Source of the DNA: Dehalococcoidia bacterium
Lineage (GTDB): Bacteria > Chloroflexota > Dehalococcoidia > Lucifugimonadales > DAOUAM01
Assembly: GCA_034433305.1 (NCBI GenBank)
Contig: DAOUAM010000054.1
Location: forward strand, 3,366 to 67,365
Direction: 5' to 3'
DNA length: 64,000 nt
In this document: in pieces, positions 57,577-64,000 of the stretch
How positions within the stretch are numbered: the first letter of the stretch is position 1
Layout of the letters: the number at the start of each line of letters is the position of its first letter
Made by a program: the position numbers and the translations under genes
The notes under the pieces: generated by a model
What the model was told of the DNA's origin: nothing
Seen by the model: the letters and a program-made list of their open reading frames with translations, nothing else
The model's database searches: none

Positions 57577-58896
57577 CTAGGCGCCGCCATCCCCCGCCGG
57601 CGTGGCGGCGGGCTGAGGCCGGTACTTGATGGAGAACTTGCTCTCCCGGATGCTGAAGCTGGCCAGGCTGGCGCCGGCCAGCAGCGAGCCAGCGATGGCA
57701 AAGGGGACGGTGTAGGAGCCGAAGGCGTCGTACAGGGCGCCTCCCATGTACACGCTGAGCGCCCCACCGGTCTGGTGGGCAAGCGTCACCATTCCGGCCA
57801 GCGTGCCCATATGCTTGAGGCCGTACACCTCGGCGGTCAGGGAGGAGGTAAGTGGCGCCGTGGCAATCCAGGAGAAGCCCGCCACAATGGCAAAGCCCCA
57901 CAGGGCGATGGGGCCAGGGGCCAGCAGAAGCATGGCGTAGGCCAGGCCGCGGACGGCGTAGGTGGCCCCCAGCAGGTTCTTGCGGCCCAGCCTGTCGGAC
58001 CAGGCGCCCACCATCAGGACGCCCAGCACGTTCAGGCCACTCATGACACCGAAAGCCAGCGCGGCAACCCCCGGCGACGCGCCACGCTCTATGGCGAAGG
58101 GCACATAGTGGGCCGAGATGATGGCCGTGGTCATGCCGCAGACGAAGTACCCGCCCGTGAGTTGCCACATGGGCAGGGACTTGTAGGAGTCCCGCCAGCG
58201 GTCAACCTCCAGCGGGCCGCGTGCCTCTTGGGAGGCCCGCGTGGACGGCGGGCCACTCGCCCCGGTAGGCCCGGAGTCGCCGTCCGGCTGGAGGCCCATC
58301 TGCGCGGGGCTGTCCCGCAGCAGGACAAAGGCCAGGGGCAACGCCAGTCCCAGCACCAGCGCGCCCAGCACTGTCCACGCCAGCCGCCAGTCCGCCGTCT
58401 GTATCAGCAACATGGCCAGGGGGACCAGCACCAGCGAGCCGGCGGACGCGCCGGCTGTGCTGATGCTCAGCGCCACGCCCCTGTTGCGCCGGAACCACCG
58501 GGCCAGCACGGCATGCACCGTCACCAGCGAGACCCCGCTGGCCGCGACGGACATGACCACGCCATATACCACTATAAAGAAGGCTATGTTGCTGGTGCGG
58601 GCCAGCAGCAGGGTGCCAGCGCCCAGGACAAACAGGCTGGTCAGGATAACCTTGCGCCCGCCCAGTCTGTCATAGAGCCGACCTATGAAGGGCTGGCTGA
58701 GGCCGTTGACCAGCCAGCCTATGGCAATGGCCAGGGAGATGGCGCCACGGCTCCACTCCAGGTCCCCGCTCATGGGGATTATGAAAACGCCGGTGCTATT
58801 CCTCGCGCCGGTGGAGACCAGCATGGCGAAGGCTGCGGCAGCTACGATAAGCCAGCCGTAGAATATGCGGCTGCCCACCCTGGATTTCGGCCACAT
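57577..58896 (-). CDS. MFS transporter
   Basis: About 12 TM helices and a GRLYDRLGGRK MFS motif. AGGAGG upstream of ATG 58896. Confidence 0.8.
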   Translation of the reverse strand: MWPKSRVGSRIFYGWLIVAAAAFAMLVSTGARNSTGVFIIPMSGDLEWSRGAISLAIAIGWLVNGLSQPFIGRLYDRLGGRKVILTSLFVLGAGTLLLARTSNIAFFIVVYGVVMSVAASGVSLVTVHAVLARWFRRNRGVALSISTAGASAGSLVLVPLAMLLIQTADWRLAWTVLGALVLGLALPLAFVLLRDSPAQMGLQPDGDSGPTGASGPPSTRASQEARGPLEVDRWRDSYKSLPMWQLTGGYFVCGMTTAIISAHYVPFAIERGASPGVAALAFGVMSGLNVLGVLMVGAWSDRLGRKNLLGATYAVRGLAYAMLLLAPGPIALWGFAIVAGFSWIATAPLTSSLTAEVYGLKHMGTLAGMVTLAHQTGGALSVYMGGALYDAFGSYTVPFAIAGSLLAGASLASFSIRESKFSIKYRPQPAATPAGDGGA

Positions 58897-59150
58897 GCTT
58901 GCCTCCTGGGATACCCTGCGTGGTAGCCTGTTGACTGGAAGTCTAGCACCGCGGACACAGATGGACAAGGCCCCGGGCCGCTGCCGCCGCCTTGCAGGCA
59001 GCACAGGCTGTCAGTGCATCCGATTATGCAGAATAATACTTAATTCGATTGCAAAATCAGACGTTTCCATACAATAATCACTAGGAACACCATGTGACCT
59101 GGGCGCACTCGTGCCACAACATGCTCCAGGGGCGCTAAGGAGAAGAAGCC

Positions 59151-59747
59151 ATGTCTGAGCAGCGGAGAGTCACACTGAAGCCGGTCACCAGGGAAGACGT
59201 CGCGCGGATAAAGAGGTGGCTTGGGGACGAGGAGGTGGCGGAAAGCTGGTTCGGCAGGTATTCCTACGGCGACCCGGCGCACCTGGGATACCACCCTTCG
59301 GAGATGGAGCACGCCTCGGAGTCCGAGTGGGAGCATGTGTTCAACAACCCTGAGCACCGCATCTACTCCATCTACAACGAGAGCGGCGAGCACATAGGCG
59401 AGGTCCACATAGCCATCGAAGAGTCCCTGGGCGACGGCCAGGTATCCATTCTCATAGGGCGCAAGGACCTGTGGCACCAGGGCTACGGCACAGCCGGCAT
59501 GAGGGCCGCCCTGGACCTGGCGTTTACCGAGCTGGGCCTGTACCGCGTGTGGGTGGACATCCCTGAGTACAACAAGGCCGCCAGGGCCATGTGCGAGCAC
59601 CTGGGCTTCATGCACGAAGGGACGCTACGCAAGAGCCGGCCCCACGAGGGCGCCAGGTTCGACTCCGTGGTAATGGGCATGCTGGCAACCGAGTACACCC
59701 AGCGGACTCCTCGCGAGGGCGCTGCTAGCGAAACTCCACGGGTCTGA
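59151..59747 (+). CDS. GNAT family N-acetyltransferase
   Basis: VTLKPVTREDVARIKRW.. and the WHQGYGTAGMRAALDLAF acetyl-CoA-binding segment. Confidence 0.8.
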   Translation: MSEQRRVTLKPVTREDVARIKRWLGDEEVAESWFGRYSYGDPAHLGYHPSEMEHASESEWEHVFNNPEHRIYSIYNESGEHIGEVHIAIEESLGDGQVSILIGRKDLWHQGYGTAGMRAALDLAFTELGLYRVWVDIPEYNKAARAMCEHLGFMHEGTLRKSRPHEGARFDSVVMGMLATEYTQRTPREGAASETPRV

Positions 59748-59828: not shown

Positions 59829-60485
59829 CTACTCGTCTATGACCACCAGCCCCTCACGGGCCGCGTGAACAATCGCCTCCGCCCTGCTCTTCACGCCAAG
59901 CTTGCTATAGATGCTGGTCAGATGGAACTGGACGGTCGCCAGGGAAACGTGCAGGCGCTCGGCAATCTCAGGGTTGGAAGCGCCGTCCACCAGTAGCTGA
60001 AGTATCTCCGCCTCTTTGTCCGTTAGCCTGTCGGACAGGGCCGTGCGCCCGTTGGAAGACTGGCCCAGGTAGCCCTGCACCACCTTCCGGCTCACCTGAG
60101 TGGAGAAAACGGTGCGCCCGGACTTTACCATGCGAAGGGACTCTATGACCTCCCTGGGAGGCGTGTCTTTCAGCACGTAGCCCTCGACCCCCAGCTCCAT
60201 CATGGCCCGAATGTATGGTTCGTTGGAGTAGTTGGTCAGCACTACGACTCGGACATCCGGGTAGTGGACGCGGATGCGCCTGACCAGTTCCACTCCGTTG
60301 ATCTCGCCCTTGAGCCGGATGTCCGTCAGGACAACATCTGGCCTGGCCCTGTTCAGCACCTCCAGTGCCTCCAAGGCGCTCGCCACATCGCCCGCGATCT
60401 CGAAGTCAGGCTCCCCTGACAGGGTAGCTACAACCCCGGCCCGGAAGATCGGGTGGTCGTCAATTATCAGGACGCTGATCATCAA
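59829..60485 (-). CDS. NarL/LuxR-type response regulator (ComA-like position)
   Basis: REC domain (VLIIDDHP..DVVLTDIRL) and a C-terminal LuxR HTH (LTDKEAEILQLLVDGASNPEIAERLHVSLATVQFH). It overlaps the kinase stop by 4 nt. Confidence 0.9.
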   Translation of the reverse strand: MMISVLIIDDHPIFRAGVVATLSGEPDFEIAGDVASALEALEVLNRARPDVVLTDIRLKGEINGVELVRRIRVHYPDVRVVVLTNYSNEPYIRAMMELGVEGYVLKDTPPREVIESLRMVKSGRTVFSTQVSRKVVQGYLGQSSNGRTALSDRLTDKEAEILQLLVDGASNPEIAERLHVSLATVQFHLTSIYSKLGVKSRAEAIVHAAREGLVVIDE

Positions 60486-62794
60486 GAGTTACCTCTGCCA
60501 TTGACTCCTTGCAATCTGGACGGACCATCTATGGGAAGTGACGCCACCACCGTCGTCCCTGACGGACTGCGGGGCAAAATCAGCAGACGCCCCCCGAGCT
60601 GCTCCGCTCTTTCCCGCATCCCGATGACACCAAGCTTGGTGCCAGGGGAGAGGTCCCTGGTCTGCTGAAAGCCGACACCATCGTCCTCTATGGTCAGGGT
60701 CACCCGGTCTTCTTCCCAGGCCAGGTGGACCCAGACGGTGCTGGCGCTGGCATGCCGCCGGCAGTTGGTCAGCGCCTCCTGGGCTATCCTGTACAGGGCA
60801 AGCTGAATCTCCGGAGGGACGTAGCCATCGCGCTCCACAGGTTCGTAGCTAAAGACCACTTTGAAGCCGGAGGCGGCGCTGGCCTCTGTCCCCAGCCACT
60901 CCAGCGCCCGCACCAGCCCCAGGTCTTCCAGCAGGGCAGGATGCAGCCTGGCCGTGAAGTTACACAGGTCCTCCGCAATGCGCTGGAGCTTCTGCTGGAC
61001 CTCAGAGGAAAGCCCGGCGCCTGCGTGCTGCCAGATAACGTTGGTGATCTGCTGAAGCGGCTCATCGTGGATGTAGGAGGCGATGCGCGCTCGCTCGGTC
61101 TCCTGGGCCTGCACCAGCCGGCGGTTCAGCTCCCTCAGCTCCCCAGCCTTGGAGCGGAGTTCCTCCAGCAACTCCAGCTTCTCCACAATAGTAGCCATAT
61201 GCCCCGCAACGGACTCCGCCAGCTTCATGTCCTCTCGCTGAAAAGGCTCCTCGGTTACCTTGGGGCCGAAGCAGAGGACCCAGGTCTCGTGCGGCTGCCT
61301 CTTGAGCTTCACCATAAGCACGTGCTCGGCGTACAGGTCCGTGGAAAGCCGCAAGAGCGACAAGCCCTGCTCAGCCTTGCCTTCTTCCTTCGAGTCCAGC
61401 AGCGGTACCAGGCCATCCGGGACTGTGCCGACCGAGGCCTTCACCTTGGCCCCATCGTCCGAAAGCCCGATGAAGGATGCAAAAGACAGCCTCAGTTCCC
61501 GGACGATGGTGCCCAGCACCGTCGTGGCCAGGTCGTCGAAATGCTTGGCATAGGCGGCGTGGATGCTGACACGCCGGGCCAGGTCGGCATGGTCTATGTA
61601 CTCCCGGTAGAGCAGCCTGTCCACCGCCGCGAAGGCCAGCCGCCTCGTCCCGGACATGGACGGGACGGCCACGAACAGGGCCGCCAGCAAGAATAGCTCT
61701 GCCGCCACGTTCTCGCTCACCTCGGGGCCACCTACCTGTCCCAGTGTGGCAATGAGCGCGCCATACAGGACAAAGACGCAGAAGGAAATCAGGGCGTAGG
61801 CCGCGCCTCTGTGCACCAGGCGCCGAATGCCCATGAGATGGTGCCGCATTATGGCGTACCCGAAGGACAGGGGTATCAGAGTAAGGCCGAGCACCGTGAC
61901 CTCAGGGCGCAGGACGAAGGGCAGGCCAGCCGCCGCTGGCAGCACACTGAAGATGATTATTGGCCCTACCGCGGCCGCGGTACCGACGGCCATGATGCGG
62001 ACCTGCTCCCTGGTGACCGGTGAGCGCGCCCCCAGATAAGTCCATGCCAGCAGGACCACTCCGCCCAGGAACGCCGCGCCCACGTAGGCGAAGGTAAGCC
62101 GCCTTACCGTGTCAAAGACCTCGGGCACGGCCAGTACGCCCACCACCCAGAGGACGTCGAGCAGCAGGGCAATGGCCAACATCATGGCCGGCACCAGCCA
62201 GTGGCGCCTCCGCGCGAATATGTAGAAGAAGAACAGGAACAGCACTGACATCCAGTGGACAAGGGGCGCCTCTGCCAGTTGCGCCAGGATGTTGGACCGC
62301 GCGGTCGCCGGGGCCAGCACTATGACTATGGCGGCCACCAGAAGGAACAGCGCCAGCGTCAGGACCTGGAGCGAACGCCTGGAGCGGAAAAACACCAGGA
62401 AACCAGTTACCGCGAAGACCAAGCCAATGGCCCAGAGGCTGGCTATGAGCGAATTGGGCGGCTGCGGCGACCGGCCCGACAACTCCAGACTCTCTCCGCC
62501 CCGGACAGACAGCACCCTGAACTCCTTCCCCCGGTCACCACCCCTGACACTCCAGGTCCGCCGGGTGATGTCAGTCCCATCTATTGCGAGAAGCACATCC
62601 CCTACCCTGACTCCAGTGTCCCAGGCGGGCGTCCCGGGACGCACCCATGTGACTACCGCCTTGCCGTCCTGGGCAAAAGCCACGTCCACTCCAAGTCGGG
62701 GTTCGCCCAGCCATACCACCACCGCCAGCACAAGTCCTGCTGGAAATGAAATGGCAAGAAGCCACCATAAAGTTGTTGCTGCCCTGGTAAACAC
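60482..62794 (-). CDS. Polytopic sensor histidine kinase (TM1, PDZ-like loop, multi-TM, HisKA_3, HATPase_c); ComP-like architecture
   Basis: 770 aa. PDZ-like GVRVGDVLLAIDG after TM1. At least 7 further TM helices. H-box YIHDEPLQ. HATPase N/G boxes (EALTNCRRHA, DDGVGF, GMRERA). GTG start. Confidence 0.85.
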   Translation of the reverse strand: MFTRAATTLWWLLAISFPAGLVLAVVVWLGEPRLGVDVAFAQDGKAVVTWVRPGTPAWDTGVRVGDVLLAIDGTDITRRTWSVRGGDRGKEFRVLSVRGGESLELSGRSPQPPNSLIASLWAIGLVFAVTGFLVFFRSRRSLQVLTLALFLLVAAIVIVLAPATARSNILAQLAEAPLVHWMSVLFLFFFYIFARRRHWLVPAMMLAIALLLDVLWVVGVLAVPEVFDTVRRLTFAYVGAAFLGGVVLLAWTYLGARSPVTREQVRIMAVGTAAAVGPIIIFSVLPAAAGLPFVLRPEVTVLGLTLIPLSFGYAIMRHHLMGIRRLVHRGAAYALISFCVFVLYGALIATLGQVGGPEVSENVAAELFLLAALFVAVPSMSGTRRLAFAAVDRLLYREYIDHADLARRVSIHAAYAKHFDDLATTVLGTIVRELRLSFASFIGLSDDGAKVKASVGTVPDGLVPLLDSKEEGKAEQGLSLLRLSTDLYAEHVLMVKLKRQPHETWVLCFGPKVTEEPFQREDMKLAESVAGHMATIVEKLELLEELRSKAGELRELNRRLVQAQETERARIASYIHDEPLQQITNVIWQHAGAGLSSEVQQKLQRIAEDLCNFTARLHPALLEDLGLVRALEWLGTEASAASGFKVVFSYEPVERDGYVPPEIQLALYRIAQEALTNCRRHASASTVWVHLAWEEDRVTLTIEDDGVGFQQTRDLSPGTKLGVIGMRERAEQLGGRLLILPRSPSGTTVVASLPIDGPSRLQGVNGRGNS

Positions 62795-62803
62795 GGCAGC
62801 ATT

Positions 62804-63814
62804 TTATCTAATTTCCTCCTGAGCAAGCAATCTCGCCAGGGGCCAATCACCTGGTGCCTTCGCCGCCAGGGCCCTTCCCACGCGCTCCGCGTGGGCCTTC
62901 TCGATGGCGGCCCGCATCCACGAATAGTGGATGGCGCCACAGCGCCACAAGGCTTCCTTGACCTCGTCCTCAGAGGCCGGGGCGTCCGTCTCCCGGGCGT
63001 AGTAGCGCTGCACCAGCCGGGCGTGGGGGCTGGACTCCGGCGGCAGGTCCAGGGCAAAGACCACGGGGAGAGTCTTTTTCCGCAGTCTCAGGTCGGACTT
63101 GCCGACGCTTCCAGGCCATACGGCGGCAATATCGTTCATGAGCTGCATCAGCAGCCCCAGGTGCCAGCCAAACTGGGCATACAGGGCTACTTCCTCTTCA
63201 TTGCCGGTGCCGACGCAGGCCCCCACCTCGGCGGCACACCTTACCAGGGAGGCCGACTTTAGCCCCGACACCAGGACTGCCTCTTCCACCGTCACGGGAG
63301 ACAGGCCCTCCAGCTCCATGTCCCGGACCTGCCCTCTCATGGCGTCCATGGCCAGGGCATCAATGGCCCGCATGGCCCTGACCACTCTGTCTGAGGGCAC
63401 GCCTCTCTCGGCCAGCCTTCCAATGGCCGCGTGGCACAACATTAGCAGGCTATAGACGGTCTCCAGCGTCCGGCCACAAGTGCGGCGGTCGCCAGGCGGG
63501 GCGACCTCGCCATCCTCGATGTCGTCTATAAGCTCGCAGGCGGCCATCAGCAGTTCCATGGCCGCGACGGCTGGGACCGCCTCCAGGGACTCGCGGCGGC
63601 CGGCCGAGGCGAAGGCCAGGAACGTCAGGGCGGCACACAGGCTGGGCTTGCCTTCGGGGAGGACTCGTGACGGCCCTGAGAGGGCCGCCAGGACCACTCC
63701 CTCCAGCCCCGCGCCCAGGCGCGCGCCCTGGACCAGTCCCAGCAACTCGTCCCTGATCGCCTGTGTGACCTCCGCCGACAGCAGAGGCGGCCCCTTGCTC
63801 GTCGCTACAGGCAT
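62804..63814 (-). CDS. Polyprenyl synthetase-fold protein (ComQ-like isoprenyl transferase candidate)
   Basis: 336 aa. A FARM-like LIDDIEDGE and a degenerate SARM-like LMQLMNDIAAV. It lies 9 nt upstream of the kinase gene. Confidence 0.55.
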   Translation of the reverse strand: MPVATSKGPPLLSAEVTQAIRDELLGLVQGARLGAGLEGVVLAALSGPSRVLPEGKPSLCAALTFLAFASAGRRESLEAVPAVAAMELLMAACELIDDIEDGEVAPPGDRRTCGRTLETVYSLLMLCHAAIGRLAERGVPSDRVVRAMRAIDALAMDAMRGQVRDMELEGLSPVTVEEAVLVSGLKSASLVRCAAEVGACVGTGNEEEVALYAQFGWHLGLLMQLMNDIAAVWPGSVGKSDLRLRKKTLPVVFALDLPPESSPHARLVQRYYARETDAPASEDEVKEALWRCGAIHYSWMRAAIEKAHAERVGRALAAKAPGDWPLARLLAQEEIR

Positions 63815-63818
63815 AGGG

Positions 63819-63998
63819 CTAGATCCACCAGTCCATGCTCATGAGGTTCGGCGCGCTCCTGGGCAGGTCGGACGTATGCGCGGCCAGGTCGGGCAAGGCC
63901 TTGAGAGAGCTTGCAACCATGCTCTCCTCGTCCGACTCCAGGGACAGGGACTGCAGGAAGCGCTCCAGGGAGGCGCTTAGCTGGACGCTCTCCACCAT
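63819..63998 (-). CDS. Candidate ComX-like pheromone precursor (59 codons from ATG 63998; may extend beyond the window)
   Basis: Hand-translated: MVESVQLSASLERFLQSLSLESDEESMVASSLKALPDLAAHTSDLPRSAPNLMSMDWWI*. The stop is 4 nt before the ComQ-like ATG. The frame remains open to the window edge. Confidence 0.4.
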   Translation of the reverse strand: MVESVQLSASLERFLQSLSLESDEESMVASSLKALPDLAAHTSDLPRSAPNLMSMDWWI

Positions 63999-64000
63999 GC

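Follow-up and report, generated by a model that had tools for sequence, protein, structure and literature searches.

A candidate precursor of a tryptophan-prenylated signal peptide opens a ComQXPA-type gene cassette in Chloroflexota

Signaling by ComX-type peptides prenylated on tryptophan (Trp) has long been held to be confined to Firmicutes, and a 2014 census recovered comQXPA-like loci in that phylum only (PMC4008528). Whether such a system also exists in Chloroflexota is the question raised by a 64,000-nucleotide (nt) stretch of a Dehalococcoidia contig (GenBank DAOUAM010000054.1; here called the window). At its very end, on the minus strand, a short reading frame (X) directly precedes a gene for a ComQ-like enzyme (Q), which is followed by genes for a sensor histidine kinase (P) and a response regulator (A). 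An earlier note on this DNA had proposed X as a pheromone precursor. Our analysis supports that idea, as the adjacent genes fit the roles of ComQ, ComP, and ComA and the enzyme-peptide pair StheQ/StheX provides a precedent in the same phylum. X is probably the precursor of a ribosomally made, Trp-prenylated signal peptide and the first gene of a Chloroflexota cassette of the ComQXPA type.

Within the window, X reads from an ATG at 63998-63996 through 59 sense codons to a tail of ...APNLMSMDWWI and a TAG at 63821-63819, and its stop is separated by 4 nt (CCCT) from the ATG of Q at 63814, all of which agrees with the coordinates in the earlier note. The note had warned that the true start might be hidden by the window edge, and the warning was justified. 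A 7.3-kb Logan contig (L001), retrieved via the exact 336-amino-acid (aa) transferase, is 100% identical to the window across an overlap of 301 nt and reaches 890 nt past the window edge. In this contig, the frame of X is closed by an in-frame stop further upstream and yields 75 aa, rather than running on for hundreds of codons, an outcome that the note had considered fatal to its proposal. Translation probably begins at an ATG lying 46 nt past the window edge (L001 662) and preceded at 7 nt by a GGGAGG ribosome-binding site, and ATG 63998 is the internal Met17 of the 75-aa product, MSVALADPKKLEELSSMVESVQLSASLERFLQSLSLESDEESMVASSLKALPDLAAHTSDLPRSAPNLMSMDWWI. The N terminus of this product is matched by homologues in the alignment (e.g., P0060, MPVSLADPKKLEEL...), and the gene is called by independent annotation pipelines. 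The precursor is acidic (12 D/E versus 5 K/R, counted from the sequence) and was modeled with three short helices in residues 8 to 49 and a coil tail. Because the 75-codon frame has a ribosome-binding site, is closed upstream, and has homologues beside transferase genes with an invariant Trp, X is, on sequence grounds, a real and conserved gene for a 75-residue peptide that opens a four-gene cassette.

The conservation of X became apparent from the neighborhoods of related transferases. We fetched 49 loci around transferase relatives from genome and metagenome collections and listed the same-strand open reading frames (ORFs) ending just before the transferase gene. A small ORF with a Trp-containing tail lies directly upstream of the transferase in all 11 related clade loci (Table 1), so that the Trp-bearing ORFs that the earlier note expected beside orthologous transferases do occur, as part of a family of about 40 members. 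Because only ~8 to 9% of random ORFs of 45 to 100 aa in the window DNA have a Trp among their three final residues, the probability of finding such ORFs by chance in 11/11 loci is ~4e-12. Out-group controls, polyprenyl synthases taken to have a canonical second Asp-rich motif, showed no upstream Trp-tail ORF. They comprise actinobacterial enzymes of Acidimicrobiia, Frankia, Streptomyces, and Nonomuraea recovered by a degenerate-pattern genome scan (L008-L046; 31 to 45% local identity), as well as L007 and L031; the actinobacterial enzymes were taken as ordinary synthases because they lack this ORF.

Searches at the protein level extended the family. A word-index search with the 75-aa X returned one near-identical protein only, and it took an exhaustive phmmer search, covering 1.84 billion representative proteins, to find 28 further proteins of 69 to 90 aa that align with X end to end. 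A profile search added more, giving about 40 distinct homologues in all, down to 29% identity and mostly 69 to 76 aa long. One Trp column is invariant (35/35 aligned sequences in alignment A4; 40/40 distinct homologues); this Trp is usually the second residue from the C terminus, with a minority of homologues ending in Trp, and the residue preceding it is also Trp in 19/34 sequences. In Bacillus pheromones, by comparison, the Trp is usually third from the end. The most variable column of the alignment is the residue after the invariant Trp (3.57 bits), and the leader follows the consensus F-I-x-S-L-S-L-P-x-D-E-E ... L-P ... L-P-x-x-x-P, with F31, S34, L35, L37, E41, L52-P53, P65, and P69 as conserved columns among 35 sequences. 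The importance that the earlier note attached to a near-terminal Trp is thus upheld, but the conserved residue is W74 and not the Trp that aligns with the Bacillus tails it had quoted (MLDWKY and MMDWHY; the papers searched for them gave the sequences GIFWEQ and ADPITRQWGD only).

Two long repeat proteins that match X, P0074 and P0070, were set aside. P0074 (713 aa; L051 2229-4370) consists of about 11 tandem X-like units of ~57 aa, each with a leader-like L-T-A-L-G-E-V-E-L-E-G-D-E ... L-P-D followed by R-G-D-W-[SNW]-G, and it matches X with an E value of 6e-6 over 8 stretches. Because its neighborhood contains neither a transferase nor recognizable domains, the match is probably compositional, a multi-core precursor being the alternative.

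By sequence, Q belongs to the all-alpha trans-isoprenyl diphosphate synthase superfamily. It matches the Pfam family PF00348 (polyprenyl_synt; E = 1.6e-16) and aligns over 190 to 260 residues with geranylgeranyl diphosphate (GGPP) synthases and the indole prenyltransferase Ord1 in the PDB (9V4G/9V4J, 3NF2, 1WY0; E = 1e-9 to 3e-18 by sequence and 2.8e-15 to 9.8e-29 by profile). These enzymes share the fold family with Q, but they use small-molecule substrates or elongate chains and have no adjoining gene for a peptide substrate, and the GGPP synthases keep the second Asp-rich motif. The 43 strong relatives of Q (E ≤ 7e-49, 36 to 97% identity), here called the clade, all come from metagenomes or metagenome-assembled genomes (MAGs), those with names being Chloroflexi/Chloroflexota or SAR202; Dehalococcoidia and Thermoflexus are further names among the genome loci. 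The first Asp-rich motif is retained in 43/43 clade members, with D97 and D101 invariant and D98 nearly so among the 34 sequences of alignment A2. In place of the second motif, all 43 carry Q-[LI]-x-N-D-x-x-[AG]-[VIL]-W-P, whereas the canonical Q-x-x-D-D-x-L-G-x-W-G is retained by 14/14 of the weaker hits (E ≥ 3e-23) in which the motif is present. Moreover, Q scores far below the cutoff of every chain-elongating synthase equivalog in NCBIfam (for IdsB, 84 bits versus 475); no ComQ model was matched in the same NCBIfam scan. In public databases, most clade members are annotated as "geranylgeranyl pyrophosphate synthase" or "polyprenyl synthetase family protein," and the JGI pipeline labels two of them "competence protein ComQ." Peptide X is very probably a substrate of Q.

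The kinase carries a PDZ domain (PDZ_6, E = 5e-9 over residues 47 to 78; PDZ_2, E = 7e-7) that is detectable in 6/7 related kinases. A profile built from seven sensor loops hits 157 PDZ domains of known structure, most strongly that of an RseP-family site-2 protease (5.7e-10), and those of DegP and C-terminal processing proteases are matched as well. The domain is flanked by a first (residues 2 to 30) and a second (residues 116 to 136) hydrophobic helix, and hydropathy indicates about 9 to 10 hydrophobic segments in residues 1 to 385. The catalytic half contains the H-box A-S-Y-I-H576-D-E-P-L-Q and an HATPase_c domain (E = 8e-13), and in NCBIfam the kinase scores best against MctS/UhpB/LiaS/NarX, all of which we take to be of the HisKA_3 type. 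The public gene call for the kinase begins 21 codons after GTG 62794 (window 62731-62794) and gives 749 rather than 770 aa; the GTG start is likelier because the longer form includes an N-terminal helix, W-W-L-L-A-I-S-F-P, that is conserved in L003 and L047. The regulator has strong matches to Response_reg (E = 7e-25) and GerE (E = 2e-19) and to NarL-class NCBIfam models.

All four genes share a strand, at intervals of 4 nt, 9 nt, and -4 nt, and the order X-Q-P-A is kept in every related locus that is long enough (L003-L006, L039, L040, L047 [partial], L050, and L052). The conserved unit comprises exactly the four ComQXPA roles, with no immunity, transporter, or further tailoring genes. Gene reality, four-gene synteny, catalytic motifs, and domain architectures are the parts of our reading that sequence analysis demonstrates. 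In one related locus (L004 5150-7506), the kinase gene is split over two frames, a 277-aa ORF and then the rest, which reflects a frameshift, a pseudogene, or an assembly error.

The correspondence with the Bacillus system extends to each of these four adjacent genes. Precursors of ComX in Bacillus subtilis have 52 to 73 aa with a Trp within the last 5 to 10 residues (PMC4008528), and X, with 75 aa and with Trp73 and Trp74 among its last three residues, fits the functional size and Trp pattern of ComX. As in ComX, the precursor is small and the near-C-terminal Trp is the only fixed residue of the tail; among close relatives of X, some pairs differ in their tails and others share them. X differs from ComX in its 75-aa length, in a leader family of its own, and in having no Pfam ComX match. 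The signature of ComQ is an intact first Asp-rich motif with a pseudo-second motif N-D-x-x-x (PMC10853753; bioRxiv 10.64898/2026.08.29.745113), and Q similarly keeps the first motif and has N-D in place of the second. The ComP-type layout consists of a PDZ domain, about ten transmembrane (TM) segments, and then HisKA_3 and HATPase_c (PMC9620489; PMC4008528). For the 763-aa ComP of Bacillus amyloliquefaciens, the published model places ten TM segments in residues 1 to 387, a PDZ fold between TM1 and TM2, and the histidine at His571, and its authors proposed that the PDZ domain binds ComX (PMC9620489). Because the TM segments, PDZ domain, and histidine follow the same order in that model, P, which like ComP has about 765 aa, TM1-PDZ-TM2, a total of about ten TM segments, and a core of the HisKA_3 type, is predicted to be colinear with ComP, His576 corresponding to His571. 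The PDZ domain is recognizable by sequence in P, whereas in ComP it is apparent via structure prediction only. Like ComA, the NarL/LuxR-type regulator is encoded just after the kinase. The host phylum, Chloroflexota, sets the locus apart from its Bacillus counterparts.

A biochemical precedent comes from Sphaerobacter thermophilus, also of the Chloroflexi, in which StheQ farnesylates the penultimate Trp (W68) of the 69-aa StheX in vitro (bioRxiv 10.64898/2026.08.29.745113, 31 Aug 2026). The second- and third-last residues of StheX are both Trp, and its residues 1 to 59 are predicted to be ordered and 60 to 69 disordered; StheQ combines D-D-x-x-D with a pseudo-motif of Q212, N215, D216, and D219 and has a single Mg2+ site, and mutation of D219 causes an 83% loss of activity (bioRxiv 10.64898/2026.08.29.745113). 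X resembles StheX in phylum, in length, and in the double Trp just before the last residue (MDWWI), and the Trp modified in StheX corresponds to the invariant Trp of the X family. An ordered leader and a disordered tail recur in the low-confidence model of X, with helices in residues 8 to 49 and a coil tail, and Q, like StheQ, has D-D-x-x-D plus Q-x-x-N-D, the spacing of Q212/N215/D216 recurring in Q224/N227/D228. The preprint describes no kinase, regulator, or family survey and calls the biological role unknown (bioRxiv 10.64898/2026.08.29.745113). The window locus, by comparison, provides the whole cassette, together with about 40 family members from Dehalococcoidia, SAR202, and Thermoflexus-type genomes.

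The PalQ/PalX/PalP cluster of Paenibacillus alvei is similar in that it includes a histidine kinase and its prenyltransferase gene is immediately preceded by that of the precursor; the C-terminal Trp of PalX is prenylated at C3 with formation of a pyrroloindoline, and the leader enhances modification (PMC10853753). It differs in several respects. PalX has an NHLP-type leader, which was not detected in 35 X family members; PalQ requires Trp as the last residue and loses activity when an Ala is added, whereas Ile follows the Trp in X; and PalQ keeps both Asp motifs and forms a remote cluster of its own (PMC10853753). A divergent subgroup in Dehalococcoidia MAGs (L039 4661-4969 and L040 4771-4911, with the adjacent genes) has precursors of only 46 aa that end in ...DAVWW or ...QAGWF. 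Its transferases have Q-L-I-D-D-A-[TS]-D-A-S at the position of the second motif and lack a recognizable first Asp-rich motif, and a kinase (in L040 without a detectable PDZ domain) is present, with two regulator genes downstream. With tails of W-W or W-F and D-D-x-x-D at the second motif, this subgroup may be nearer to the PalQ type.

Table 1. Features of the X-Q-P-A cassette (window coordinates) and tails of the ORFs directly upstream of related transferases (by locus)
Feature	Position or locus	Strand	Basis or remark
Precursor gene X, 3' part (codons 16-75 + stop)	63819..64000	(-)	Reading frame, tail, stop; homologues 69-90 aa
Variable C-terminal tail L-M-S-M-D-W-W-I	63822..63845	(-)	Alignment A4 and entropy; presumed core of mature peptide
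Codon of Trp74, family-invariant Trp	63825..63827	(-)	Alignment; predicted prenylation site
Q, 336-aa ComQ/StheQ-like peptide prenyltransferase candidate	62804..63814	(-)	PF00348
First Asp-rich motif D97-D-I-E-D101, prenyl-diphosphate/Mg2+ site	63512..63526	(-)	Alignment A2 and motif table
Pseudo-second Asp-rich motif Q224-L-M-N227-D228, then I-A-A-V-W-P	63131..63145	(-)	Q224, N227, D228 invariant
P, 770-aa ComP-like sensor histidine kinase	60482..62794	(-)	Pfam, NCBIfam, hydropathy, synteny
Extracytoplasmic PDZ domain, residues 32-105, between TM1 and TM2	62480..62701	(-)	Proposed pheromone-binding module
A, 218-aa NarL/LuxR-type response regulator	59829..60485	(-)	Response_reg + GerE
Upstream ORF tail	L002		...KVKGFQWWA
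Upstream ORF tail	L003		...DLFRDGWWA
Upstream ORF tail	L004		...LLRMGVWV
Upstream ORF tail	L005		...TIVNDTW
Upstream ORF tail	L006		...SIVKMGSWH
Upstream ORF tail	L039		...SQDAVWW
Upstream ORF tail	L040		...RPVQAGWF
Upstream ORF tail	L047		...SVMEHSWWH
Upstream ORF tail	L048		...SLIKETIWI
Upstream ORF tail	L049		...DLITMVWWR
Upstream ORF tail	L050		...PNIVDRWI

Beside the regulator gene (window 57577-59747) lie an opposite-strand gene for a GNAT acetyltransferase and a gene for an MFS transporter on the cassette strand. At the other end, directly upstream of X and divergent from it, is a gene for a small PAS-domain protein (L001 34-414) that is also present in L052 (5268-5822), the closest distinct relative, and was not found in more distant loci; its product could provide an extra input to the shared promoter region. 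Apart from this recurrence of the PAS gene in L052, none of the MFS, GNAT, and PAS flanking genes is conserved across the related loci. Because related cassettes lack the MFS and GNAT genes as conserved neighbors, there is no support for the MFS protein as a dedicated exporter. A promoter and terminator scan of the cassette gave no signal above shuffles, no family reached its gathering score in an Rfam scan of both strands of the 64-kb window, and no second copy of the cassette was found within the window.

If X encodes a signal, its tails might be expected to diversify as Bacillus pherotypes do, and examples of this kind are present among close relatives. P0093 and P0094 have leaders that are 92% identical and tails of TIVNDTW versus TMSNSPW, and two other close pairs end in NIVDRWI versus SIVAWWTP (P0095 and P0097) and in GFQWWA versus GFDFWL (P0089 and P0091). 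In one close pair, 92% identity in the leader goes with 20% in the tail, and several pairs have identical tails. Pooled over eleven close pairs, identity was 79% for leaders versus 65% for tails (Fisher p = 0.008; pairs non-independent). The earlier note had suggested looking for hypervariable tails around an invariant Trp: the Trp is invariant (40/40), the last residue is the most variable column, and the excess variability of the tails as a whole is modest. Between the window and L003, identity within the kinase rises from 29% in the PDZ domain, its most divergent part, to 43% in the membrane region and 53% in the kinase core, compared with 54% for the regulator, 52% for the transferase, and 43% for the precursor. 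This gradient resembles that of Bacillus pherotypes, although at such distances it is a weak indication.

Several observations weigh against the view that X is a ComX-type signal precursor. The gene order is X-Q-P-A rather than Q-X-P-A, X being upstream of Q in all related loci and not between the enzyme and kinase genes as comX is, and in Sphaerobacter, stheX is immediately downstream of stheQ. The window ORF had no Pfam match at E ≤ 0.01. Among the 35 aligned family members, none matched the Bacillus ComX model (PF05952) at E ≤ 1, and none matched NHLP or other NCBIfam leader models. The resemblance of M-D-W to Bacillus tails, which had impressed the earlier note, does not hold up: it is peculiar to the window sequence and incidental in a family without detectable ComX homology. 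Q is likened to ComQ and StheQ by their described features rather than by sequence alignment, and relatedness to StheQ/StheX in particular is drawn from features reported in the preprint; the D219 of StheQ is Ala231 in Q. The HisKA_3 match of the kinase is sub-threshold (E = 0.0099), and in a single-sequence AlphaFold model of the kinase N terminus, the PDZ region had a predicted local distance difference test score (pLDDT) below 50, leaving only the flanking helices usable; the precursor model also is of low confidence (pLDDT 61). Neither an exporter nor a processing protease was found within the conserved cassette. Finally, the excess variability of the tails appears to be real but modest, as estimated from non-independent pairs.

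Three other explanations of the locus deserve consideration. In the main rival, X is prenylated and yet serves as something other than a quorum signal, namely, as a lipidated ribosomally synthesized and posttranslationally modified peptide (RiPP) that would be antimicrobial, act as a surfactant, or work in cis as a membrane-anchored factor. The kinase and regulator would then only control or sense its production, as happens in many RiPP clusters. PalQ/PalX has been treated as a RiPP natural-product cluster despite its adjacent kinase (PMC10853753), and the lack of a conserved export or processing gene in the cassette would suit this explanation too. We nevertheless consider it unlikely, since the conserved unit is limited to the four ComQXPA roles without immunity, transporter, or further tailoring genes, the kinase has the specific layout of ComP, including the PDZ domain proposed to bind ComX, and tails diverge between close relatives in a pherotype-like manner. 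The identity of the enzyme itself could also be questioned. Q might be an ordinary chain-elongating polyprenyl diphosphate synthase, with X unrelated to it or a noncatalytic small subunit, as in the heteromeric hexaprenyl and heptaprenyl synthases that have small partner subunits. Public annotation as GGPP or polyprenyl synthase agrees with this, as do GGPP synthases as the best hits among solved structures, but the second Asp-rich motif, which is needed for condensation with isopentenyl diphosphate, is replaced in the whole clade and kept by the nearest hits outside it, and scores fall far below all synthase equivalog cutoffs. A noncatalytic subunit would, moreover, leave an invariant near-C-terminal Trp in a variable tail unexplained, and a Chloroflexi enzyme with a like motif pattern prenylates its neighboring peptide (bioRxiv 10.64898/2026.08.29.745113), so that we regard an ordinary synthase as very improbable.

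We see hardly any likelihood that X is a random frame of GC-rich DNA that ends in its Trp tail by coincidence. Spurious frames are plentiful here, with 57 ORFs of at least 30 aa within 6 kb, and ~8% of random ORFs of the same size would have a Trp in the last three residues. Against this stand about 40 homologues, conserved as proteins down to 29% identity and alike in length, start, and position relative to the transferase gene, as well as a strong ribosome-binding site and a probability of ~4e-12 for the Trp pattern alone; the comparative data in practice refute a chance frame. Motif replacement and conservation thus effectively exclude both the ordinary synthase and the spurious ORF, and we return to X as the precursor of a prenylated signal peptide.

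For the window locus, we infer prenylation, processing and export, kinase binding, and density-dependent signaling as follows. The acidic, helical leader of the translated 75-aa X would dock on the adjacent transferase Q, which would bind geranyl or farnesyl diphosphate via its single intact Asp-rich motif and Mg2+ and prenylate Trp74 at C3, the ring probably closing to a pyrroloindoline as it does in ComX. A protease would then remove the leader, and a short lipidated tail of perhaps 5 to 8 residues ending in W-W-I would exit the cell. At high density, the peptide would bind the sensor half of the ComP-like kinase, via the PDZ domain, the membrane bundle, or both, and the kinase would autophosphorylate at His576 and pass the phosphate to the NarL-type regulator, altering transcription. 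That X serves as a substrate of Q we rate higher than that it signals cell density to the adjacent kinase.

Overall, the cassette is not categorically new; it stands out by the order of its genes, a leader family that lacks annotation, and a PDZ domain that is recognizable by sequence. The one-month-old preprint demonstrates the chemistry in a single cultured Chloroflexi species and for an enzyme-peptide pair only. Beyond the literature that we found, the locus and its relatives add a complete signal-enzyme-receptor-regulator cassette for Chloroflexota, the occurrence of this cassette across many uncultured lineages that bear the names SAR202, Dehalococcoidia, and Thermoflexus, and a recognizable precursor family that is captured by no current database model. 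Because no database model covers this family, genome annotation misses the precursors and labels the enzyme a GGPP synthase. A simple annotation rule would combine Q-x-x-N-D at the site of the second Asp motif with an upstream ORF of ~75 aa ending in aromatic-Trp-x. The approximately 40 natural tail variants are on offer for work on enzyme specificity, and a PDZ sensor that can be recognized by sequence allows ComP-ComX recognition to be tested. We speculate, as a possibility that we hold to be rather doubtful at present, that uncultured Chloroflexota, lineages of the SAR202 and Dehalococcoidia types among them, run a full ComQXPA-type circuit with pherotype-like diversification, in which the PDZ domain reads the free C terminus of the prenyl peptide (aromatic, prenyl-Trp, x, COOH) in the manner of DegS and C-terminal processing proteases. 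If true, this would explain the fixed distance of the Trp from the C terminus and would offer a concrete receptor-ligand model for ComP and ComX.

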